A DNA stretch of 10,792 nucleotides from a virus (IMGVR_UViG_2690315922_000018:1-10792); one strand, 5' to 3'. Shown: positions 1 through 10,078, counted from the stretch's first letter. Numbers and translations: made by a program. Notes: generated from the sequence alone by a model not told the origin.

Positions 1-1236
1 CTACGATAACCGCGCATTCAACATGGCTACCTGTTCGTCGTTCATGTCATCAATCCACATACCGTAAATTTCATACACCATCTGCGCAGTTTCATGCCCC
101 ATCTGGCTGGCTATAAATGCCGGGTTCGCTCCTGCCGTCAACAGCCAACAGGCAAAAGTATGCCGCGTATGGTACGGATTACGGCGGCGAATACCAGCAC
201 GTTTTACTGCTGCATTCCATCTCGCCCCCAAACTGCTTACCGAGTAATAAGGTTTCTGTTTTCCGTTACACATCCTGGGCATGAAAACAAAATGCAGTTT
301 TTGCTTTTCGGTTCTGCCATACTCCCGATGATAAAAGGTGATTTCGCTTTTGCGATAATGTCCGGTCAGTTTGTATTGCTCCTTCAGTGCTTCAAGAGCA
401 GGCTGCAGTAATGTTACCGTTCGGATCCCGGCATTTGTTTTTGGAGGACCGAACATATCAAGTATCGTCAGGTTTCTTCTGACATTCACAATTCCCTTCT
501 CGAAATCCACATCCTCCCACGCCAGGGCTGCCAGTTCCCCGTGACGAAGCCCGGAGTAAACAGCAAATTTCCACAAGTTTTGACTCTGTCCTTTTTCTCT
601 TTCCATTAATGCATTGAATTCTGTTTTAGATAACGGATCAGGCTTTATTCTGTTTCGCTGTAATTTTTTTACTCCTTCAAATGGTTTGGTTGATATAAAT
701 CCCGACTGATACGCAAAACGTAACAACGAACATAGCAGGGCGATATAGTTATCAACTGTGCGCACGGTTCTTCCTTTTTTGTTGGCTCTTGGATTATCCT
801 GGTAAAGCGTTTCTCCATGCAGCAGTTCATTTCGGTAGCTTAAGATATCGCTATAACGAATATGTGATATTGGGGTACTCTCGCAAATGATTATTCTGAG
901 AGTTTTTAATTGTGATTTTGTTTTCTTCATTGTGTTTGTTGTTAACTCTGTCTCTTTAATTTTTGTCCAGATATCACAAAGCTCCCCGAATGTTTTTATG
1001 ACCCTCGTTGTCACCATTTTTGCCCCGGTATTGGACTGGGGAAAACGTCTTAAATACTCGAACTCGCCGGAATTTATTTCGTGAACTATCAATGCTCTTA
1101 AACTCCCGGCCTTTTTAATGTTACTGTTAGTAACCTCCCAGCCTTTCAATGTTTCCCGACATCGTTTCCCTCGAAACATGAACCAGATGCGAATGTATTT
1201 ACCTCGAATCTCGACACCTGTTGGTAATTTAGACAT
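1..1236 (-). CDS. intR: Tyrosine-type site-specific integrase, Rac prophage IntR family (411 aa)
   Basis: Full-length ORF from ATG at 1236..1234 to TAG at 3..1. N-terminal sequence MSKLPTGVEIRGKYIRIWFMFRGKRCRETLKGWEV closely matches the Rac integrase as I recall it; the C-terminal region carries the tyrosine-recombinase R...HxxR...Y pattern (HTRHTFACWLL ... MVYEIYGMW). It is the terminal gene of the leftward operon, as in lambdoid phages. Confidence 0.9.
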   Translation of the reverse strand: MSKLPTGVEIRGKYIRIWFMFRGKRCRETLKGWEVTNSNIKKAGSLRALIVHEINSGEFEYLRRFPQSNTGAKMVTTRVIKTFGELCDIWTKIKETELTTNTMKKTKSQLKTLRIIICESTPISHIRYSDILSYRNELLHGETLYQDNPRANKKGRTVRTVDNYIALLCSLLRFAYQSGFISTKPFEGVKKLQRNRIKPDPLSKTEFNALMEREKGQSQNLWKFAVYSGLRHGELAALAWEDVDFEKGIVNVRRNLTILDMFGPPKTNAGIRTVTLLQPALEALKEQYKLTGHYRKSEITFYHREYGRTEKQKLHFVFMPRMCNGKQKPYYSVSSLGARWNAAVKRAGIRRRNPYHTRHTFACWLLTAGANPAFIASQMGHETAQMVYEIYGMWIDDMNDEQVAMLNARLS

Positions 1237-1237
1237 A

Positions 1238-1453
1238 TTATGAGTCTTTGATAAACTGATTTATCTTCGGATAGTTGTACCAGATAATCCCTCGCTTGCT
1301 GTCTGGCTTACCTAAAGGAGATACTCGTTTGAAGTGGAGACCTTCCACCCAACAGTTCTGGCGATATGCTTCAATTTGTCTGGCCCCCAGACCAGTACGA
1401 AGCATCAGACCGTATTCAACCATCCACTCTTCATTAAAGATCACTTGTGCCAT
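1238..1453 (-). CDS. ydaQ: Excisionase-like protein, YdaQ/XisR family (71 aa)
   Basis: ATG at 1453..1451 with a GAGGTGA-type SD upstream; the ORF-track start at 1477 is TTG. Stop TAA at 1240..1238 lies 1 nt from the int start. The product [30 protein letters not shown]... matches Rac YdaQ as I recall it, in the xis position immediately upstream of int. Confidence 0.75.
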
Positions 1454-1552
1454 CGCATCACCTCTGGCGGGCGACAATATTAGACAGAAATTGACGCCCG
1501 GCGTTGATTATTAATAATCAGCTATGAAGTTTTAATTTGAATACAATGCAAC

Positions 1553-1753
1553 TTACCAAGACTGAAGTTTCTCGCAATTAAAATTCATCAGTTTTACTTT
1601 TTGCTCTCTGGAAACGCCTGCTTCTTTTTTCCCTGAGAGCATTTTTTCGCATTCTGATTTCGTTAGTTTAGATTTTGAATATCTTGTCCAGTTAGTAGGA
1701 GTACCACCTTCCTTTTCAATTGTGGCGGTAATTTTATACATAGATGCCTCCAT
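1553..1753 (-). CDS. ydaC: Small conserved prophage protein, YdaC-like (DUF1187)
   Basis: ORF 1553..1813; the likely start is the internal ATG at 1753 ([17 protein letters not shown]...), but the ATG at 1813 cannot be excluded and neither has a strong SD. Position between ralR and xis matches Rac synteny. Confidence 0.5.
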   Translation of the reverse strand: MEASMYKITATIEKEGGTPTNWTRYSKSKLTKSECEKMLSGKKEAGVSREQKVKLMNFNCEKLQSW

Positions 1754-1964
1754 TAATATTTTCAGCGGTTCGTTTATTCCATCTTTCGAGGGCTTCTTTC
1801 TCACTTCCACCATAGCCAGTTCGGGATTCGCATCCGTTGCATTTTGCCCGGTAATACCCTGAAATGGCTTTCACCGTTACAGATGGACAACCACAAAACG
1901 GACATGGTTTGACTTTTGTGTATCGCTCTGGTTTTTCTCCTGTGAGCTTTGTGGCTGCGCTCAT
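1734..1964 (-). CDS. ralR: Restriction-alleviation protein, Lar/RalR family (about 76 aa)
   Basis: Contains the CPFCG ... C..C ... ERWNKR pattern typical of the Lar family. Preferred start is ATG 1964..1962 (GGGGAG SD about 8 nt upstream), which forms an ATGA overlap with the exo stop; the alternative ATG at 1970 has the SD too close. Confidence 0.7.
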
Positions 1965-2641
1965 TTCCATTGCTCCCCAAATACAAAACCAATTTCAGCA
2001 AGTGCCTCGTCCATTTTTTCGATGAATTCTGGCACCATCTCGTCAAAACTCGCCATGTACTTTTCATCCCGCTCAACCACGACATAATGCAGGCCTTCAC
2101 GCTTCATACGCGGGTCATAGTTGGCAAAGTACCAGGCATCTTTTTGCGTCACCCACATGCTGTACTGCACCTGGGACATGTAAGCCGACTTTATGGCCCC
2201 GAAACCACCGAGCCGGAACTTCATGAAATCCCGGGAGGTAAACGGGCATTTCAGTTCAAGGCCGTTACCGTCGTTGCATAAGCCATCGGGAGAGCAGGCG
2301 GTGCGCATAGTCTCGTCACGATAGATGATCGGGGATTCAGTAACATTCACGCCGGAAATGAACTCAAACAGGGCTCTGGCGTCGTTCTCGTACTGTTTTC
2401 CCCAGGCCAGTGCTTTAGCGTTAACTTCCGGGGTCACTCCGGTGCAGACCTCAGCCAGCAGGGTGTGGAAGTAGGACATTTTCATGTCAGGCCATTTCTT
2501 TCCTGAGCGGGGTTTTGCTATCACGTTGTGAACTTCTGAAGCTGTGATGACGCCGAGCCGTAATTTGTGCCACGCATCATCCCCTTGTTTAACAGTTCTC
2601 ACGTCGATTCCTGTACGTTGCAGGATAATGTCAGGAGTCAT
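1961..2641 (-). CDS. exo: Lambda-type exonuclease (Red alpha / Exo, YqaJ fold), 226 aa
   Basis: Near-identical over its full length to phage lambda Exo as I recall it ([15 protein letters not shown]...[20 protein letters not shown]...[11 protein letters not shown]), same length of 226 aa. Start ATG 2641..2639 overlaps the bet stop TGA 2640..2638. Confidence 0.95.
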
Positions 2642-3417
2642 GCTGCCACCTTCTGCTCTGCGGCTTTCCGTTTCAGGAATCCAAGAGTTTTCACTGCTTC
2701 GGTCTGCGTCAGTTCTGATGATGCGCGAATGTCGCGGCGAAGTATCTGGGAACAGAGCGGCAATAAGTCGTCATCCCATGTTTTATCCAGGGCGATCAGC
2801 AGAGCGTTAATCTCCTGCATGGTTTCATCGTTAACCGGAGTGATGTCGCGTTCCGGCTGACTTTCTGATGCGGTATTTTCGACAATGCGCTCGGCTTCAT
2901 CCTTGTCATAGATACCAGCAAATCCGAAGGCCAGACGGGCACACTGAATCATGGCTTTATGCCGTAACATCCGCTTGGGGTGCGACTGCCACGGCCCCGT
3001 AACTTCTTTGCCTTCGCGGGTTTTGAATGGTTCGCGGCGGCACTCATCCATCCACTCGGTAACGCAGATCGGATGATTGCGGTCCTTGCGATAAATCCGG
3101 CATGTACAGGATTCATTGTCCTGCTCAAAGTCCATACCATCAAACTGCTGGTTTTCATTGATGATGCGGGACCAGCCATCAACGCCCACCACCGGAACGA
3201 TACCATTCTGCTTATCAGGGAAGGCGTAAATCTCTTTCGTCCACGGATTAAGACCGTACTGGTTGGCGACGATCAGCAGCGCGATGAATTGCGCATCGCT
3301 GGCATTGCCTTTAAATGCTGTCTGGCGAAGAGTGGCGATCAGTTCCTGCGGGTCGACAGTATCCATGCCGACACGTTCAGCCAGCTTCCCGGCCAGCGTT
3401 GCGAGTGCAGTACTCAT
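2638..3417 (-). CDS. bet: Lambda-type single-strand annealing protein (Red beta / Bet), 259 aa
   Basis: Near-identical to lambda Bet as I recall it ([19 protein letters not shown]...[42 protein letters not shown]...), about 2 aa shorter. ATG at 3417..3415. Confidence 0.95.
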
Positions 3418-3422
3418 TCGTT

Positions 3423-3722
3423 TTATACCTCTGAATCAATATCAACCTGGTGACGCGCAATGGTTTCAACCATGTACCGGATGTGTTCTGCCATGCGCTC
3501 CTGAAACTCAACATCATTATCAAATGCGCGGCTAATTGCCTGTTTACTGGCGCCGTGGCGTTGCAAATGGTCGATGCAGAGCGATTCAAACAGGTGCTGG
3601 GGCAGACCCTTTTCCAGGTCGCCCGCCAGCTCTGTTTCTTTTTCTTCGCGAACGATCTGCTGGTAGTGGCGTGACCATGCCAGATCTTCAATGCGATCAA
3701 AAATCAGGCATGTGCTCATCAT
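3423..3722 (-). CDS. gam: Lambda-type Gam (RecBCD inhibitor), short form of about 99 aa
   Basis: C-terminal 85 aa nearly identical to lambda Gam as I recall it (...[40 protein letters not shown]...[26 protein letters not shown]). First ATG is the tandem ATG ATG at 3722/3719; the ORF-track start at 3755 is a TTG. The start overlaps the 3' end of the upstream 663-aa ORF (stop at 3699..3697). Confidence 0.9.
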
Positions 3723-5688
3723 CCGCCACTCCAAAATTTTCAAGCCTGTTGGCAATCATCATTGCAATACCCGGAATTAATGGCGCTGAGGCTATACCCG
3801 CAGGATTCGCACATAAACCGTAAACCGCCGCAATCACCACTTGTCTTTTCCAGTCGAGTTTTTCTAATGATGAAGCTGCTGCTTCACCAGTTTCATCACT
3901 GCAATCGTGATGCTGATCGCTGCCAGCGTTCTCCTTGTGCAGATGTTTATTGTCTTCCATTTTCTCCGAATCTTTTTCCTGAGATTCATCCATATTTTCT
4001 TCATTAAAGGTTTCCTGATACGTTGCGTCTCCCATCACTGCACCACAGTCAGGGCAGCTATTTCCTCCAGCCTGACCGCAGGCGGTGTAAATTTTTTCTG
4101 CTTCCTGTTTCGCTACTGGCTCAGGTTGTTTCACATCCGGGCTGGTTTTTTCAGTTTCTGGTGTGTTTTGTTCTGTTTCTGGCTTATTCTGGTACACAGA
4201 ATCGCGGGTCTGGATCCCCTTGACCCATTTCGGATCGTTCGGGTCGCTAATTCCTTCAACAAACTCTCCGTGACAGGCAGCCAGTAATTTGTCTGCATCG
4301 ACAGGATTTTGGGGCGGAATGTTTTTCCGGGCTTCATGGAGTTCTGCCCTCAGTTCCTGATATTTCGCATCAACAGAATTTACCTGTGGCTGAGCATCCA
4401 TCGACTGCGTGTTCTGATGATGTTCAGTTGTATCCGGTTCCACTGTTTCAGGCGTTGCCTGTTCATTTGCCATTGCGCCAGATGGTTGTGGTTTTTCTTC
4501 ACCTTGTTTTCCTTCTTCTGTATCACGCTGTGGCATTGGGGCTGAGGAACGGCCGCAAGCAATATCCACGATTTCCTGATCAGGATTGGCGTGATTGGTT
4601 TCAATCAGCACCTTGTTCAGATATTCAGTGACGTGCGCGTGAATAACCTCAATACCGATAGGTGCTTCTTTCACGGATGCAACCACGATGGCGCGGGAAT
4701 AATCCAATCCCCCAGGCATAGCAGTGAATATGTCACGGAAAACAGAAAAGGGCGGCTTATTCTCTGCGATGATTTCATCAATACGTTTAGCGTGTGCCGG
4801 ATGAAGGTTATAAATATCAACATCCATTGAACGGGCCAGAATGCCAGTCGCAACATCGCGTGCCAGCGAAGCCTGATCGTGGACGAAATCTTCACCGCGA
4901 TCAGTTTTGTTCCCGCCGCCAGCATTAGCACCGGAGGGCGTGCGGGTGATGCGTGAAACACGATTCCCTTTCATCCACTCTTTTGTCAGCAGACCTCGAT
5001 CGGTGTAGTCGGTGCCCAGGTATGCTTCGAAAAAAGCAGTCATCAGTCCCAGATCTGAATTACCAGGATTAGGGAAAACTTTGTCAGTGTCACGAACCAG
5101 TTTGTGGAGATCTCGAATCTCAAGCAGTTCGAGTTGTGCTGTTTTATTTGAGATAGCCAGCGCTGTAACTGCGGGAAGTTCTTCATCCCGTGCAATGTGT
5201 AATGCCTGGAGTTCGTCGCGTGAAACGTGCGTTACTGGATTTTCACTGCCGTGTTGTGCCAGCCAGCGAACAGGTAATTCCTGACCTGAAATCGGCAGGA
5301 GCATGCTCTCCTCAATCTCAGTCATATCTTCGCCGTTGACGTTGGCATTGTCAGTGCTGGCTGGTTTGTCCTGTGCAGAGTGTGATGGCGCGATAAATAC
5401 CATTGTAATGCCATCTTCCCCGCCTTTTTCGTAACGGTTGCAGAATTCCGTATCAAATACGCCTTCTGGCGGAAGGTCATCAACAACGGGCAAATTTACG
5501 CGAACAGGTTTTTTAAAATCATCTTCGTCGTAGCCTGCATCGTCCATTGCAGCAATGCAGCGTGAAACCGCAACAGAAAGTTTTTTTGCCTCTGTCCAGA
5601 AGAAGCCGCCTTTGATGCCGAGGCGTTTTCTTGCGCCCTCATTTTTCGCGTCGCAATGTAACGCAAAATTTTGTTTGTCAGTGCTCAT
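3697..5688 (-). CDS. Large RecE (exodeoxyribonuclease VIII) N-terminal-region-like protein, 663 aa, with a divergent C-terminal tail and no evident nuclease domain
   Basis: Uninterrupted 663-codon ORF, ATG at 5688..5686 with a GAGG about 10 nt upstream. It sits immediately downstream of racC, which is the recE position in Rac. Long stretches ([101 protein letters not shown]) match what I recall of the non-catalytic N-terminal region of RecE; I cannot fully separate recall from priming by the sequence. The last 130 aa carry a Cys cluster ([12 protein letters not shown]), an acidic low-complexity run and a roughly 30-aa hydrophobic segment. Confidence 0.6.
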
Positions 5689-5756
5689 TGTTTTTTAACC
5701 TCAACTCAGATTAAAATTTAGTGCGAGTGATGAATAAATGTCCCAGGTTTTTCACT

Positions 5757-5789
5757 CAGGCCTGTACACTGTGCAGGCTTTCTTTTTTT
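5757..5789 (+). terminator. Putative rho-independent terminator on the plus strand (8-10 bp GC-rich stem followed by TTTCTTTTTTT)
   Basis: Stem 5759-5766 (GCCTGTAC) pairs with 5770-5777, followed by a T-rich run 5778-5789. On the minus strand the same hairpin is not followed by a U-run. Lies between the racC stop and the 663-aa ORF start. Confidence 0.35.
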
Positions 5790-6064
5790 CAAATTTCACC
5801 TTTTAATTTCATTGCAATCAGAGTTGCCAGAAACTCAGCTTTTTTTTCTGCTGGCAGATTATTTCCAATGTGCACCAGGCACATTTTTTTGACGCCTTCG
5901 TGAAGTGTTTTAACGTTGCCTGATGGACCGTCGATATCAACCACAGTGAATGGGGTTTCTTTATTTTCTGTTTTAATCACGTAGCCAATACGCTTTCCGT
6001 CCAGATTGACCTCGTGAACAATGTCATCAGTAGTTACAACAGTGGCTTCATAATTGGTAATCAT
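5789..6064 (-). CDS. racC: RacC (Rac prophage small protein), 91 aa
   Basis: ATG 6064..6062 with AAGGAG SD 7 nt upstream; product MITNYEATVVTTDDIVHEVNL.GKRIGYVIKTENKETPFTVVDIDGPSGNVKTL... matches Rac RacC as I recall it. The ORF-track N-terminal extension to 6112 is probably not used. Confidence 0.8.
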   Translation of the reverse strand: MITNYEATVVTTDDIVHEVNLDGKRIGYVIKTENKETPFTVVDIDGPSGNVKTLHEGVKKMCLVHIGNNLPAEKKAEFLATLIAMKLKGEI

Positions 6065-6138
6065 GTTTTTCTCCTTAATTAAGGTTGAGCGAATCCCTGC
6101 CATTGCTGGCATAAATTCAGTTTCGAATAGTCAGTTAA

Positions 6139-6309
6139 TTAAAGTTCGTGTGCCATCTGGTCTTTTTCGGCACAAGTTTCACTGCAATATTTTCTTGGTT
6201 CGTCTTTTGATAAAGTTCCGTGCATGAAATGAAGCATTCTTTCAATAGTTTTGCTTTCTTCAACGTCTTTTTTGCAAAGGTGGTAAGCACATTTTATTTT
6301 CTTATCCAT
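6139..6309 (-). CDS. ydaE: YdaE-like small Cys-rich (putative zinc-binding) protein, 56 aa; not in the ORF track
   Basis: Hand translation of the minus strand: ATG 6309..6307 -> [56 protein letters not shown], stop TAA 6141..6139. The start overlaps the kilR stop (TGATG). Position between kilR and racC matches Rac. Confidence 0.7.
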   Translation of the reverse strand: MDKKIKCAYHLCKKDVEESKTIERMLHFMHGTLSKDEPRKYCSETCAEKDQMAHEL

Positions 6310-6530
6310 CACCATGACTCCGCTTTTACAGGTAAACCATCACTACCGAGGAAGACTTTAATCATGCAGTCAGAAATGCATGTTTTTGTAGTCAGGCTAC
6401 GAATATAAAGTTTTCGCTTTTTTATATTGTTTGCCGAGGCGATATATGTCCGGCCTTCATGAAGAACATAATCGCCAGGAGTTACACACTGACGTGGTAT
6501 TTCATCAGTTCCGAAGTGATGAGTAATCAT
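6309..6530 (-). CDS. kilR: KilR-like killing protein (Rac KilR is an FtsZ inhibitor), 73 aa
   Basis: ATG 6530..6528 preceded by GGAGA with 6-nt spacing; the ORF-track start at 6542 lacks an SD. Product ...[67 protein letters not shown] matches KilR as I recall it. Confidence 0.8.
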
Positions 6531-6702
6531 AATTATCTCCATTTTTACAAATGAATTTTGTCGATGCGGTGCCTGGTGCCTCCAGGTGACGTTAACCAGT
6601 TAACAATTAACGCCGGATACAGAGAATCCACCCATAACACTGTTTTTAGCTTTAACTGTTCCGCGTGCGCTTAGCCGCATTCACCGCATCACAAAATTCA
6701 CT

Positions 6703-6751
6703 TTAAAAAGGGCGGACATCAGCCAAACTTCAAGAAAAAACTGATGCCGCC
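6703..6751 (-). terminator. Terminator-like hairpin on the minus strand (imperfect 11-bp stem, long loop, then CUUUUU)
   Basis: 6711-6722 GGCGGACATCAG pairs with 6741-6751 CTGATGCCGCC (one bulge). On the minus strand the stem is followed by CTTTTTAAAG (plus 6701-6710). The 18-nt loop is atypical for an intrinsic terminator, hence low confidence. Confidence 0.3.
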
Positions 6752-6969
6752 AGGACTACACACAGCAATGTCGTTATTTACAACCGGAGGCGCACTCCCA
6801 CCATTTAAATTTAACAGACAAGACCGACTCTTTATGGATACCGGAAGTGCGCCTTCGTGTTGTGCCCGGTTTTATTTCACCACCTCCGGGCTTCGGTGGT
6901 CTCGGCTATACCCCTACAGCGAGAGCTTGTGTTAACATTTCAATACCCTTACAGTTGAGAGTTATTGAT

Positions 6970-7458
6970 ATGTTGGATGTATTTACTCCATTGTTGAAAC
7001 TTTTTGCTAACGAGCCACTCGAAAGACTTATGTATACGATTATCATTTTTGGTCTCACTCTCTTGCTGATACCGAAAGAGTTTACTGTCGCATTCAATGC
7101 TTATACTGAAATACCTTGGCTCTTTCAGATTATCGTTTTTGCCTTTTCTTTCGTGGTCGCCATTTCCTTCTCAAGATTGCGAGCACATATTCAAAAGCAT
7201 TATTCATTACTACCAGAGCAACGAGTATTGCTTCGTTTATCTGAGAAAGAAATCGCTGTATTTAAAGATTTCCTTAAAACAGGAAATCTTATTATCACTT
7301 CTCCTTGCCGTAACCCGGTTATGAAAAAATTAGAACGGAAGGGCATCATTCAACATCAGAGTGATAGCGCAAACTGTTCTTATTATCTCGTCACCGAAAA
7401 ATACTCCCATTTTATGAAGTTATTCTGGAACAGCAGGAGTAGACGTTTTAATCGTTAG
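6970..7458 (+). CDS. sieB: Superinfection exclusion protein B (SieB), 162 aa, membrane protein
   Basis: ATG at 6970 (GAGAG 9 nt upstream). Product MLDVFTPLLKLFANEPLE.LMYTIIIFGLTL.LIPKEFTVAFNAYTEIPWLFQIIVFAFSFVVAISFSRLRAH... has two hydrophobic segments and matches Rac SieB as I recall it. The only plus-strand gene in the left half, as in Rac. The ORF-track extension back to 6847 is not supported. Confidence 0.85.
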   Translation: MLDVFTPLLKLFANEPLERLMYTIIIFGLTLLLIPKEFTVAFNAYTEIPWLFQIIVFAFSFVVAISFSRLRAHIQKHYSLLPEQRVLLRLSEKEIAVFKDFLKTGNLIITSPCRNPVMKKLERKGIIQHQSDSANCSYYLVTEKYSHFMKLFWNSRSRRFNR

Positions 7459-7610
7459 CTTACTGTGTGCTTCTCCAACCATCGGCGCGCACCAGTTTCG
7501 GTTTTAAATGTTTTGCTTTTGGTATACGTCATAGCAGTGAACGTTCCATCTTGGTTGGGGAACACGCCGCACACCAGGGATTCGTTGTTGCCGAGGTCGA
7601 TTTTTTGCAT
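7455..7610 (-). CDS. ydaF: YdaF-like small protein, 51 aa; not in the ORF track
   Basis: Hand translation: ATG 7610..7608 -> MQKIDLGNNESLVCGVFPNQDGTFTAMTYTKSKTFKTETGARRWLEKHTVS, stop TAA 7457..7455. Its stop overlaps the convergent sieB stop (TAG 7456-7458). Synteny with Rac ydaF. Confidence 0.65.
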   Translation of the reverse strand: MQKIDLGNNESLVCGVFPNQDGTFTAMTYTKSKTFKTETGARRWLEKHTVS

Positions 7611-7621
7611 TTTGGGAACTC

Positions 7622-7756
7622 TCACATCTTGTTGTTGCGGATAGAGGCTTCTGCTTGCCAGAGATCCCAGTCGTTGCTACGTAAAGCCTGCACAGCCTGG
7701 CTGTAAGTGATACCGCAACAATCCATCAAATACTGAACTACTTCGTAATGCACCAT
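7622..7756 (-). CDS. ydaG: YdaG-like small protein, 44 aa; not in the ORF track
   Basis: Hand translation: ATG 7756..7754 preceded by AAGGGAGAG SD -> MVHYEVVQYLMDCCGITYSQAVQALRSNDWDLWQAEASIRNNKM, stop TGA 7624..7622. Lies 11 nt upstream of ydaF, so the two are probably co-transcribed. Confidence 0.65.
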   Translation of the reverse strand: MVHYEVVQYLMDCCGITYSQAVQALRSNDWDLWQAEASIRNNKM

Positions 7757-7936
7757 CTTATCTCTCCCTTTAACGCCGGGTGGCGGAACGTTTTATCTAC
7801 TGCGCTTTGTATCAATCAACAACTGCCGTCATGTTCGTATGCCTCAGGCTGGCTACTTAGCCCTGTTCAGTGGCTGGATAACTCGAGGTATTGTCCTGCC
7901 GTTCTCTGGTGGGGCGTTGTTTGGATATGACAAATG

Positions 7937-7976
7937 CTCACATATCGTGAGTGATTTGTCAACTCAATATGTGAGC
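7937..7976. promoter_or_regulatory. Operator-like palindromes (OL-type) upstream of ydaG-ydaF, with a consensus TTGACA -35 on the minus strand
   Basis: 7937-7951 reads CTCACG-N4-GTGA on the minus strand, the same motif as the operators between the repressor and cro-like genes; 7963-7975 is a second near-palindrome CTCAATATGTGAG. A perfect TTGACA lies on the minus strand at 7962..7957, but no good -10 follows at 17 bp. Confidence 0.4.
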
Positions 7977-8003
7977 AATGTTGTTTTTGGATTTTTGATG
8001 GAC

Positions 8004-8036
8004 AAAAAAAGCCCTCGCTAATAGCGAGAGCTTTTT
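8004..8036. terminator. Bidirectional rho-independent terminator (A7 - 9-bp stem, 3-nt loop - T5) downstream of the repressor gene
   Basis: A-run 8004-8010, stem GCCCTCGCT (8011-8019) pairing with AGCGAGAGC (8023-8031) with one mismatch, T-run 8032-8036. On the minus strand it follows the repressor stop (8065..8063) by about 27 nt and is itself followed by U7. Confidence 0.65.
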
Positions 8037-8062
8037 GATTGGAATCGAGGGAGATTAAAGGT

Positions 8063-8452
8063 TTAGGAGGATTTCTTCTGTTGCCTGCTTCTTAGATATT
8101 TTTCCACATACTCATCAAGCTCTTGAAGACGGATTTCGAACAGATCAATCATGCGTGCTTGTTCTGAACCCGGGAGCTGATTAAACAGCTCTAGCATTTT
8201 TTTCTGGTTATCATTTAACCATGAGTACGTGTTTTCCTGTTCACCGAACATTAATTCTGCGGGGGAAATGCCTAGTACTTGGCCGAGGATGATCGCATCC
8301 TCAGCCCCCACACTCCTGGTGCCAGCTTCGTAGTTAGCAATACGAGAAGAACCTGACCAACCACATAGTTTTGCCAGGTTTCCCATACTTAATCCTCGAT
8401 TTAGGCGAGTGGCTTTTAGGCGCTCGCCTATTTGTTCTGCAATCGTTTTCAT
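8063..8452 (-). CDS. Prophage immunity repressor, XRE-family HTH (CI/RacR analogue), 129 aa, no S24 peptidase domain
   Basis: ATG 8452..8450; the ORF-track start at 8557 is TTG and the 35-codon extension would cover the operator region. N-terminal HTH (LKATRLNRGLSMGNLAKLCGWSGSSRIANYEAGTRSVGAEDAIILGQVLGISPAELMFGE) and a short helical C-terminus. Divergent from the cro-like gene and followed by a terminator. Sequence is not recognised as K-12 RacR, so it is probably a different immunity allele. Confidence 0.8.
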   Translation of the reverse strand: MKTIAEQIGERLKATRLNRGLSMGNLAKLCGWSGSSRIANYEAGTRSVGAEDAIILGQVLGISPAELMFGEQENTYSWLNDNQKKMLELFNQLPGSEQARMIDLFEIRLQELDEYVEKYLRSRQQKKSS

Positions 8453-8465
8453 AGTTCCGATTTTA

Positions 8466-8527
8466 TCACGATGTGTGAAATTGGCGGTACTCACGTATCT
8501 GTAGTTGATCTCGCTCACGAAGTGTGA
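8466..8527. promoter_or_regulatory. Three-site operator array (TCAC-N5-GTGA type) with divergent promoters between the repressor and cro-like genes
   Basis: Sites at 8466-8478 TCACGATGTGTGA, 8491-8503 TCACGTATCTGTA (imperfect) and 8515-8527 TCACGAAGTGTGA, spaced 25 and 24 bp centre to centre. Candidate rightward promoter: -35 TTGATC 8505-8510, -10 AATAAT 8527-8532 overlapping site 3, then AGGAGG SD 8539-8544. Candidate leftward -10 TAAAAT at 8465..8460, only 8 nt from the repressor ATG. Confidence 0.5.
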
Positions 8528-8549
8528 ATAATAGAAACAGGAGGTAGTG

Positions 8550-8792
8550 ATGAACAAAATTTCAACATATCGAAAACAGCTTGGGCTGTCTCAAAGACAA
8601 CTTGCTGTTCAGTTAGGGTGGATACAAAGCCGACTGGCAAATTACGAAGCAAATTTTCGTACCCCTGGACTAGAGGAGTGCAGAAAAATTGTTTCTACCC
8701 TTAATCGGCTTGGCGCTCATTGTGGACTTGACGATGTATTCCCCCCAGACGGTAAGCATAGCGAAAACAGCATAGGAGCGGTTGATTCATGA
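8550..8792 (+). CDS. Cro-like / YdaS-position HTH regulator, 80 aa
   Basis: ATG 8550 with AGGAGG SD 5 nt upstream (the ORF-track GTG at 8547 is too close to the SD). HTH motif LGLSQRQLAVQLGWIQSRLANYE. First gene of the rightward operon, divergent from the repressor. Stop overlaps the ydaT-like start (ATGA at 8789-8792). Confidence 0.75.
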   Translation: MNKISTYRKQLGLSQRQLAVQLGWIQSRLANYEANFRTPGLEECRKIVSTLNRLGAHCGLDDVFPPDGKHSENSIGAVDS

Positions 8793-9211
8793 AAATCAGG
8801 CATGAGCACATCGAATCAGTGTTGTTAGCCCTGGCAGCCGAAAAAGGGCAGGCGTGGGTCGCTAACGCAATTACTGAAGAATATCTGCGCCAGGGGGGCG
8901 GCGAATTGCCCCTGGTGCCTGGCAAGGACTGGAACAATCAGCAGAATATCTATCACCGTTGGTTGAAAGGTGAAACGAAAGCCCAAAGGGAAAAAATTCA
9001 GAAACTGATCCCTGCGGTTCTGGCAATTCTTCCGCGCGAGCTGCGTCACCGACTCTGCATCTTCGATACCCTGGAACGCCGTGCATTACTGGCGGCGCAG
9101 GAAGCGTTGAGTACGGCAATTGATGCGCATGATGATGCAGTCCAGGCCGTTTATCGTAAAGCACATTTCAGCGGCGGCGGGTCGCCCGGCGACTCTGTCG
9201 TAGTGCATTGA
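8789..9211 (+). CDS. ydaT: YdaT-like protein (proposed CII-like regulator family), 140 aa
   Basis: ATG 8789 with AGGAG about 10 nt upstream. N-terminal MKIRHEHIE... and C-terminal ...GGGSPGDSVVVH resemble Rac YdaT as I recall it, with the same length and the same position after the cro-like gene. Confidence 0.7.
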   Translation: MKIRHEHIESVLLALAAEKGQAWVANAITEEYLRQGGGELPLVPGKDWNNQQNIYHRWLKGETKAQREKIQKLIPAVLAILPRELRHRLCIFDTLERRALLAAQEALSTAIDAHDDAVQAVYRKAHFSGGGSPGDSVVVH

Positions 9212-9255
9212 TTGAAATTAATCGTGCCGGACTGTTTTGTTCGGTATCAGTTAAA

Positions 9256-9676
9256 TGTAACGCTTACAGCGTTACAAGGTGAAAACAATATGGCTTCAAA
9301 CTGGATAAAGCTCGAGGTTATTACGCCGGATAAGCCGGAAATATTCAGGCTTGCTGAGATTCTGAATATTGATCCAGATGCCGCATTAGGGAAAGTCATT
9401 CGCTTCTGGGCATGGGCGGATCAACAAATGATAGACGGTAACGCAGAGTGTAACGCTCGCGGCGTTACAAAAAGTGCAATAGATCGCATCACTTTTATGG
9501 CTGGTTTTGCTGATGCGTTAATTCAGGTTGGATGGCTGGTCGAAAATAACGGTGGGCTTTCTCTACCTAACTTTGAACGTCATAACGGAAAAAGCTCTAA
9601 AAAACGGGCGATTACAAACGAGAGGGTTACAAAAATACGCGAACTGAAACGAAAAGGTAACGCTGCCAGCGTTACA
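9256..9676. repeat. Three dispersed palindromes TGTAACGCT-N3-5-AGCGTTACA plus extra GTTACA(A) half-sites; candidate iterons or origin
   Basis: 9256-9276 TGTAACGCTTACAGCGTTACA (perfect 9-bp arms), 9449-9469 TGTAACGCTCGCGGCGTTACA, 9656-9676 GGTAACGCTGCCAGCGTTACA; further half-sites GGTAACGCA 9437-9445, GGTTACAAAAA 9625-9635 and ATTACAAA 9612-9619. Confidence 0.45.
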
Positions 9677-10078
9677 CAAACGGATCAAAAAGCGTTACCA
9701 GAGGAAGAGGAAGAGGAAGATATAAATACTGATCTCCCCCTAAATCCCCCTCGCCAAAAACGAGCATCTAAAAAATTCGAGCCGGAGGCTATTGAGTTGC
9801 CCGATTGGTTGCCGGAAACACTCTGGCATGAGTGGGTCCGGTTCAGGCAGGCATTGCGAAAACCGATTCGAACGGAGCAGGGCGCTAACGGGGCGATACG
9901 GGAACTGGAAAAATTCCGCCAGCAGGGTTTTACCCCTGAGCAGGTGATTCGACACAGCATCGCCAACGAATACCAGGGCTTGTTCGCGCCGAAAGGCGTT
10001 CGACCGGAGACGTTGCCTCGGCAGGTTAACACCGTCTCGTTGCCGGACAGTGCGATTCCGCCAGGCTTCAGGGGGTAA
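9290..10078 (+). CDS. ydaU: YdaU-like putative replication protein (DUF1376 family), 262 aa
   Basis: ATG 9290 with AGGTGA 7 nt upstream; the ORF-track start at 9212 is TTG. Position immediately upstream of the DnaC-like gene matches Rac ydaU. Contains an EEEEEED acidic stretch and the palindromic repeats listed separately. Confidence 0.6.
   Translation: MASNWIKLEVITPDKPEIFRLAEILNIDPDAALGKVIRFWAWADQQMIDGNAECNARGVTKSAIDRITFMAGFADALIQVGWLVENNGGLSLPNFERHNGKSSKKRAITNERVTKIRELKRKGNAASVTQTDQKALPEEEEEEDINTDLPLNPPRQKRASKKFEPEAIELPDWLPETLWHEWVRFRQALRKPIRTEQGANGAIRELEKFRQQGFTPEQVIRHSIANEYQGLFAPKGVRPETLPRQVNTVSLPDSAIPPGFRG

Follow-up and report, generated by a model that had tools for sequence, protein, structure and literature searches.

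Lambda reverse, a laboratory-selected phage, is a lambda that acquired recET from the Rac prophage. Here we analyse a stretch of 10,792 nucleotides (nt) assigned to a virus (IMGVR_UViG_2690315922_000018:1-10792, referred to as the window over its full length) in which the opposite product is found, i.e. lambda Red-type gam, bet and exo genes within a Rac backbone. The two cases are alike in that the exchange took place between the same two recombination systems and phage families, and lambda reverse shows that either cassette can serve the backbone of the other. They differ in the product, as lambda reverse combines a lambda backbone with Rac genes, and in the junctions. Lambda reverse (lambda rev) is mentioned in a passage of the recombineering literature (PMC3945230).

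A further relative is KingRac, a 46.8-kb Rac-like phage (Frazao et al. 2019, PMC6731689). It produces particles and, in the mouse gut, lysogenised a K-12 strain at ttcA, where it took the place of the resident defective Rac; its recombination genes are not discussed in that paper. A 2025 survey of lambdoid Rec modules documents components that shuffle freely and mentions nuclease-less 'RecE-2' proteins of unknown role (PMC12315714). Apart from the KingRac sequence paper, our literature searches returned no paper describing a Rac and Red hybrid as such, and none on the function of YdfE, to which the 'RecE-2' proteins are linked below.

From the comparisons presented here, the window very probably represents the early-left arm of a lambdoid prophage that belongs to the Rac family, sits at ttcA in Escherichia albertii and carries a lambda Red-type cassette as the result of inter-prophage exchange and, next to it, a working open reading frame (ORF) without nuclease domain. 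The mosaic is of a known kind and is already present in public annotated genomes, namely in KingRac, in other E. coli prophages and in part in Shiga toxin (Stx) phages.

Lambda Red-type genes between Rac-type flanks

The window is 100% identical to the E. albertii contig BBVO01000014.1 (GCA_001514765.1). The integrase gene abuts ttcA-dbpA-zntB, where Rac is attached in K-12, both in this source contig and in three further E. albertii contigs that were inspected closely. Identity to K-12 is only 84% in the host flank but 94.6% from int to ralR, and the prophage has therefore moved between species after the species split. On the minus strand the genes are arranged in the order intR, xisR, rcbA/ydaC, ralR, exo, bet, gam and an ORF of 663 amino acids (aa). 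Beyond this ORF lie racC, ydaE, kilR, sieB (on the plus strand), ydaF and ydaG, and past ydaG a repressor/cro pair, ydaT, a ydaU-like gene and ydaV. An original prediction, made from the sequence alone, had proposed that the genes on both sides (int, xis-like, ydaC and ralR; racC, ydaE, kilR, sieB, ydaF and ydaG) follow the order of Rac, and this is borne out by blastp identities of 89-100% between the Rac-type flank proteins and those of K-12.

Nucleotide alignment to K-12 Rac and lambda reveals the anticipated switch of identity from Rac to lambda and back. K-12 Rac matches positions 1-1916 (94.6%), 3876-5350 (recE codons ~102-587, 84%) and 5681-7916 (92.7%), and lambda matches positions 1950-3698 (92.7%). 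Sliding identity to lambda amounts to 87-99% over exo, bet and most of gam, decays in the first gam codons and is indistinguishable from noise beyond ~3700. The claim that exo, bet and gam are nearly identical to those of lambda is correct with respect to type, the similarity being far above family level, but overstates the degree, with ~93% identity at the nucleotide level and only ~80% at the aa level for Gam. As had also been predicted, recT and the RecE nuclease domain are gone, since tblastn found no match to recT or to RecE residues 588-866 better than E = 1.4 in the window. The fraction of guanine and cytosine (GC) is 0.514 in the cassette compared to ~0.42 in the Rac flanks, which supports a foreign origin of the cassette.

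The three proteins belong to the Exo, Beta and Gam families, and Exo keeps all six catalytic and DNA-binding residues checked (W24, R28, L78, D119, E129 and K131), including the catalytic Asp119, Glu129 and Lys131. As in lambda, the genes follow the order gam-bet-exo with a 5-nt spacer between gam and bet, and the bet stop codon overlaps the exo start as ATGA; the exo stop codon overlaps the ralR start, again as ATGA. The gam start codon is preceded by GGAG at a distance of 6 nt and lies inside the last 23 nt of the upstream 663-aa ORF. Such packing of the ORF/gam overlap and the ATGA overlaps would allow co-expression of the genes from the early-left promoter. We infer from lambda biology that upon induction an early-left transcript from the operator region would give the 663-aa protein, Gam, Beta, Exo and RalR in series, and that Gam would block RecBCD, Exo resect 5' ends and Beta anneal them.

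While Exo and Bet are close to their lambda counterparts (Table 1), Gam differs more and is present only in the short 98-aa form. The homology to lambda stops at about gam codon 8. Furthermore, the window contains none of the lambda genes kil, cIII, ea10, ral and orf60a-63 (tblastn searches with kil, cIII, ea10, ral and orf60a gave no match in the window). Instead, an ORF of the RecE N-terminal type is found upstream and ralR downstream.

With K-12 Rac the window shares the ttcA site, the IntR-type integrase, xis, rcbA, the ralR/RalA pair, racC, ydaE, kilR, sieB, ydaF, ydaG, ydaT and ydaV, and the gene order on both sides that places it in the Rac family. The recE-recT pair typical of the family is absent, as is RacR/YdaS. 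In addition to the loss of recT and of RecE residues 588-866, the window differs from K-12 Rac in an unrelated repressor/cro pair, an unrelated N-terminal half of ydaU and another type of sequence for the first 96 aa of the recE-like ORF.

Breakpoints of the exchanged cassette

The best comparator for mapping the breakpoints is not K-12 but a sibling E. albertii prophage at the same site (L010, GCA_027566055.1), which is 98.9% identical to the window over 1-1939 and 96.4% identical over 3874-6924. Between these flanks the sibling carries a PDDEXK nuclease domain and a RecT of 350 aa, and the exchanged cassette therefore comprises positions ~1940-3873. Junctions had been expected at ~1960 and within 3700-4100; they map to 1917-1957 and 3873/3874.

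The segment 1917-1957 is common only to other prophages combining Rac and Red, as seen in alignments and blastn searches. Read in the coding direction, this is the downstream breakpoint, bounded by the exo stop codon and ralR codon 6. The position of the K-12 ralR start codon reads GAG in the window, and an in-frame upstream ATG at 1962-1964 is used as start, resulting in a RalR of 76 aa that is longer at its N-terminus by 12 residues, for which the junction segment codes. For the E. coli relatives L001 and KingRac the annotated ralR start is a GTG in the K-12 position.

At the end of the cassette that is upstream in the coding direction, the breakpoint coincides exactly with the protein domain boundary between RecE residues 587 and 588. 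This is the same point that was chosen empirically for trimming RecE in recombineering, where the minimal active RecE nuclease fragment starts 'from a.a. 588' (PMC3945230).

A RecE-like ORF with a conserved tail and no nuclease domain

Residues 58-604 of the 663-aa ORF match K-12 RecE residues 50-587 at 76% identity. A Pfam search with the ORF returned only PF06630 (E = 8.4e-32), and the PDDEXK nuclease domain PF12684 was not found. The ORF covers positions 1-600 of the 877 positions in the NCBIfam RecE model and, scoring 1066, falls short of the cutoff of 1269. In an AlphaFold2 (AF2) model the predicted local distance difference test (pLDDT) score is above 90 for residues 1-400. Databases label the ORF 'exodeoxyribonuclease VIII'. 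For ORFs located beside gam-bet-exo this label is misleading because they have no nuclease domain.

The C-terminal tail of 59 aa is helical, and ~45 aa of it are conserved. In relatives the motif reads LTYRQQLTIAALQGLCANPA...DDIPxMA and contains QGLCANPA. Compared with Stx phages, the ratio of nonsynonymous to synonymous substitution rates (dN/dS) of the tail is 0.13-0.16 at a dS of ~1; for the 663-aa ORF the ratio ranges from 0.06 to 0.54 by region. A phmmer search with the tail finds the motif in at least 17 family representatives, in each case at the very end of the protein; these representatives are nuclease-less and only 20-35% identical to the ORF. The precomputed Pfam hits of the relatives P0221, P0240 and P0210 are YdfE_N/YdfE_C (PF27432). 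Gene contexts were looked up for four distant tail-bearing relatives, and in three of them the gene is part of an early-left operon with no recombinase beside it. In other lambdoid prophages (L014, L015 and L016/L017), nuclease-less YdfE-type relatives with the tail lack genes for RecT, Bet, Exo and Gam in their vicinity, so that the tail is not confined to a partnership with Red.

With the nuclease-less YdfE/'RecE-2' family the ORF shares the conserved core, the absence of a nuclease Pfam domain, the position in the operon and the C-terminal QGLCANPA...IPxMA. The distant members differ in having a YdfE_N-type N-terminus instead of PF06630, and they usually have no recombinase genes alongside. 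The link to the YdfE family is made only by distant full-length relatives; in a pairwise comparison, the YdfE fragment of K-12 is not similar to the 663-aa ORF. K-12 ydfE, located in the Qin prophage (L013, 7079-7999) and namesake of the Pfam YdfE families, is a pseudogene truncated by IS2; it occupies the equivalent early-left position after dicB-ydfD.

Because the tail is under selection and its motif is conserved in distant nuclease-less relatives, the 663-aa ORF is an intact, selected gene of an old nuclease-less architecture and not a recE stump. It is predicted to be a working gene and not an exonuclease.

Two candidate sources of the tail were rejected. A remnant of the RecE nuclease domain is not supported by Smith-Waterman alignment, which scored no better than with shuffled sequences (285 of 500 shuffles gave an equal or higher score), and the tail/junction DNA shows no similarity to the lambda genes upstream of gam (kil, N-terminus of the long Gam).

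The ORF is itself a patchwork, in which residues 1-96 are of the Stx-phage type, residues 97-604 are K-12-like and the tail resembles Stx-phage and YdfE sequences. Residues 1-96 (5401-5688) have 83% nucleotide identity and a dN of 0.07 to the Stx-phage type, and blastn does not align them to K-12 recE. The ORF has a second, intragenic mosaic boundary near 5350-5400. The RecE-like ORF of the E. coli relative L001 has a K-12-type N-terminus.

Alternative C-termini in the RecE family

The same N-terminal region is joined, after the shared ...CSDETGEA, to at least three C-termini: the K-12-type PDDEXK nuclease (protein length 884-891 aa), a different and longer PDDEXK domain (1042-1048 aa, with 1,143 sequences grouped in one cluster) and the tail (655-671 aa). 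Across a wider range, 80 family representatives of at least 450 aa were compared using Pfam. PF12684 is present in 17 of these, a DnaQ-like Rv2179c 3'-5' exonuclease in 14 and a fused RecT in three, and ~46 have no recognisable nuclease. The DnaQ-like exonuclease and the fused RecT, found in representatives from the range P0121-P0270, are built onto the same N-terminal scaffold.

Recurrence in other genomes and phages

The same contig structure is found on 17 E. albertii contigs from several assemblies. In a set of 5,426 complete E. coli genomes the tail is present in 106, always annotated as 'RecE family' or 'Gam'. The gam-tail-recE junction is covered to at least 80% in 26 genomes of this set and the exo-ralR junction, at the same coverage, in 16, KingRac among them. 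Since the arrangement occurs on the E. albertii contigs, in complete E. coli genomes and in phage genomes, it is not an assembly artefact. As the junctions are shared with E. coli prophages including KingRac, they were not made in this genome.

The left arm of KingRac (L018) is collinear with window positions 1-6192 at 91.7% identity and has the same two junctions. KingRac thus carries the identical mosaic; in experiments it is inducible, forms particles and integrates at ttcA. KingRac differs in its E. coli host, in a Rha-family gene that replaces kilR/sieB and in the GTG start of ralR. As KingRac is active and has the same mosaic, the mosaic belongs to a viable phage lineage.

The unit consisting of a RecE N-terminal-type ORF with tail followed by gam-bet-exo is also found in the Stx phages 75/02, POCJ13, phiSTEC1589-Stx1c and PhiR5_2, again with the end of the ORF overlapping the gam start. 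In these phages an 'exodeoxyribonuclease VIII' of 680-690 aa ends right at the start of gam. The Stx phages differ from the window in their integrase, N and cI/cII, and they lack ralR. Their ORF is 58-59% identical overall to that of the window and their Red genes are 88% identical, compared to 93% between window and lambda.

With respect to the original prediction, the mosaic of Rac and lambda modules is real, but a picture with two parents is too simple, as positions 3699-3873 and the first 96 codons of the ORF derive from neither and resemble Stx-phage versions. The selected tail, the alternative C-termini, of which there are at least three, and the recurrence in KingRac, E. coli and Stx phages had been missed. 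That Red stands in place of recT and the recE nuclease domain holds as a difference from K-12, and does not demonstrate a direction of change.

Route and history of the exchange

The cassette sits between blocks shared by all Rac-family prophages, i.e. the N-terminal 600 codons of the recE-like gene upstream and ralR-rcbA-xis-int downstream, and such cassettes could thus move between related prophages by ordinary homologous recombination. This genome most likely acquired its cassette by homologous recombination in these shared flanks, a route which is illustrated by the sibling pair. A recent, illegitimate one-off recombination between a lambda-like phage and a K-12-like Rac, in which recT and the 3' third of recE were deleted and a decaying recE pseudogene was left beside Red, would explain why the NCBI Prokaryotic Genome Annotation Pipeline (PGAP) labels the equivalent E. 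coli gene 'incomplete; missing C-terminus', why the ORF scores below the RecE equivalog cutoff and why neither junction has flanking homology to lambda. Such an accident is nevertheless very improbable. Every copy of the ORF is intact, and purifying selection acts on the gene up to and including the tail, which is absent from K-12 recE and lambda yet conserved in distant relatives. Moreover, E. coli and KingRac have both junctions and Stx phages the right one, the copies diverging from each other by 8-28% at the nucleotide level, and the identity to lambda is only ~93%. The latter value, together with the 17 contigs from several E. albertii assemblies and the closed E. coli genomes, also argues against a chimera of the assembly or a lambda Red recombineering construct as contaminant. 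Even though Red plasmids are common in laboratories handling Escherichia, this origin is refuted by recurrence and divergence.

A different question is which form of the RecE-like gene came first. The nuclease-less form with tail, accompanied by a separate recombination cassette or by none, might be ancestral, K-12 RecE a later fusion with a free-standing PDDEXK exonuclease gene and recET of Rac the derived mosaic; the layout of the window would then be nearer to the older one. This is consistent with the ~46 of 80 distant representatives that lack a nuclease domain, with the at least 17 that end in the tail motif, with distant tail forms standing alone in early-left operons with no recombinase nearby, and with two different PDDEXK domains joined at the same point. 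The unrelated nuclease folds (PDDEXK and DnaQ-like) of the nuclease-bearing members suggest repeated fusions. However, in the close Escherichia group the forms with a nuclease outnumber the others by far, and the lambda-type Red genes are clear imports when compared with the low-GC Rac flanks. As a whole this reversed history is a genuine possibility that we consider somewhat doubtful; it concerns history only and is compatible with the exchange of a Red-type cassette into a Rac-family prophage as described above. On the narrower point of the fusion, we lean toward a derived origin, since the tail motif is spread over distant relatives that lack a nuclease and the fused nucleases are of varied folds.

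Several observations weigh against the interpretation as a cassette exchanged by homologous recombination next to a working ORF. The start of RalR is altered. No flanking homology is visible at the original exo-ralR join, and the first join of exo to ralR may have been illegitimate rather than homologous. In addition, aa 534-549 (4042-4089) read YxxC-x8-CxxC in the E. albertii lineage (eight sequences), with the first Cys lost. Given the altered RalR start and the lost Cys, it is not certain that every gene is fully functional. A scan of 1400-8800 with promoter and terminator consensus sequences, counted on this side as well, gave sites not above shuffled expectation and speaks neither for nor against a single operon. 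Nearly all relatives, K-12 RecE among them, keep the intact form of the motif, a four-cysteine knuckle CxxC-x8-CxxC. AF2 confidence is low around it.

More broadly, the RecE N-terminal region might be, rather than an appendage to an exonuclease, an autonomous, ancient early-left protein of a YdfE/RecE-N family that partners end-processing enzymes either in cis, as in PDDEXK, DnaQ-like and RecT fusions, or in trans, with the QGLCANPA tail replacing the covalent link in the latter case. The window would then contain a natural 'split' version cooperating with lambda Exo, Beta and Gam. We regard this idea as speculative and rather unlikely. If true, it would explain why linear-linear recombination is boosted by full-length RecE and not by RecE588. 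The near-isogenic E. albertii pair (tail and Red versus nuclease and RecT) together with the culturable KingRac provides a ready experimental system for the role of the RecE N-terminal region.

The locus shows lambdoid phages trading whole recombination systems in the form of a 1.9-kb cassette bracketed by conserved genes. Otherwise it is an expected product of known lambdoid mosaicism and a natural counterpart of lambda reverse. What it adds is modest and consists of the exact breakpoint at a domain boundary, the three interchangeable C-termini, the old selected tail and the misnomer 'exodeoxyribonuclease VIII'.

Feature coordinates and neighbouring modules

Table 1. Features of the window, with the cassette and its junctions listed before the flanking genes
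Feature	Position	Strand	Evidence and remarks
Exchanged cassette (5' end of ralR, exo, bet, gam, tail-coding end of 663-aa ORF)	1940-3873	-	Comparison with sibling L010; GC
Left junction	1917-1957	.	Rac homology stops at ~1916-1939; lambda homology begins at ~1950-1957
Right junction	3871-3882 (3873/3874)	.	Codons for ...CSDETGEA|A, corresponding to K-12 RecE residues 587|588
exo, lambda-type 5'-3' exonuclease, 226 aa	1961-2641	-	93.8% aa identity to lambda Exo; Pfam YqaJ PF09588, E = 6.5e-30
bet, lambda Beta single-strand annealing protein, 259 aa	2638-3417	-	94.6% aa identity to lambda Bet; NCBIfam bet_lambda equivalog, 167.7 bits (cutoff 76.95)
gam, short 98-aa form, RecBCD-inhibitor family	3423-3719	-	Pfam PF06064, 188 bits (cutoff 25), full length; 79.6% identity to lambda Gam residues 41-138
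Tail-coding segment, aa 606-663 (last 58-59 codons of 663-aa ORF)	3699-3873	-	No blastn match to K-12 Rac or lambda
663-aa ORF: RecE N-terminal region (PF06630 and conserved core, aa ~230-400), disordered linker, tail; no nuclease domain	3697-5688	-	
intR, Rac-type tyrosine integrase	1-1236	-	97% aa identity to K-12 IntR; adjoins ttcA in source contig
xisR excisionase	1238-1453	-	98.6% aa identity to K-12 XisR
rcbA/ydaC (DUF1187)	1553-1741	-	Pfam PF06688, E = 1.7e-37; 98% identity to K-12 RcbA
RalA antitoxin small RNA	1557-1735	+	Rfam RF02694, 208.6 bits (gathering score 170), full length
ralR (Lar family), new 5' end	1734-1964	-	NCBIfam RalR equivalog, 144 bits; 89% identity to K-12; called as 76 aa in E. 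albertii contigs
racC	5789-6064	-	96.7% identity to K-12 RacC; NCBIfam PRK09790
ydaE	6139-6309	-	93% aa identity to K-12
kilR	6309-6530	-	92% aa identity to K-12
sieB	6970-7458	+	99% aa identity to K-12
ydaF	7455-7610	-	100% aa identity to K-12
ydaG	7622-7756	-	91% aa identity to K-12

RalA is antisense to rcbA, and the ralR/RalA type I toxin-antitoxin pair of Rac is kept beside the imported cassette. An Rfam search of the window returned nothing besides RalA.

The immunity region (7916-8783) contains a repressor gene at 8063-8452 on the minus strand and a cro-like gene at 8550-8792 on the plus strand. Neither protein has a blastp match to the RacR/YdaS immunity pair, and 7916-8783 has no blastn match to K-12. 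The region differs even among E. albertii sibling prophages, as L006/L007 diverge at 8221-8550 and L010 at 7479-8347. Being unlike racR/ydaS of K-12 and variable among siblings, it is therefore another swapped module. In the ydaU-like replication gene the N-terminal half (9212-9716) has no match to K-12 ydaU, and the C-terminal half and ydaV match K-12 at 91%.

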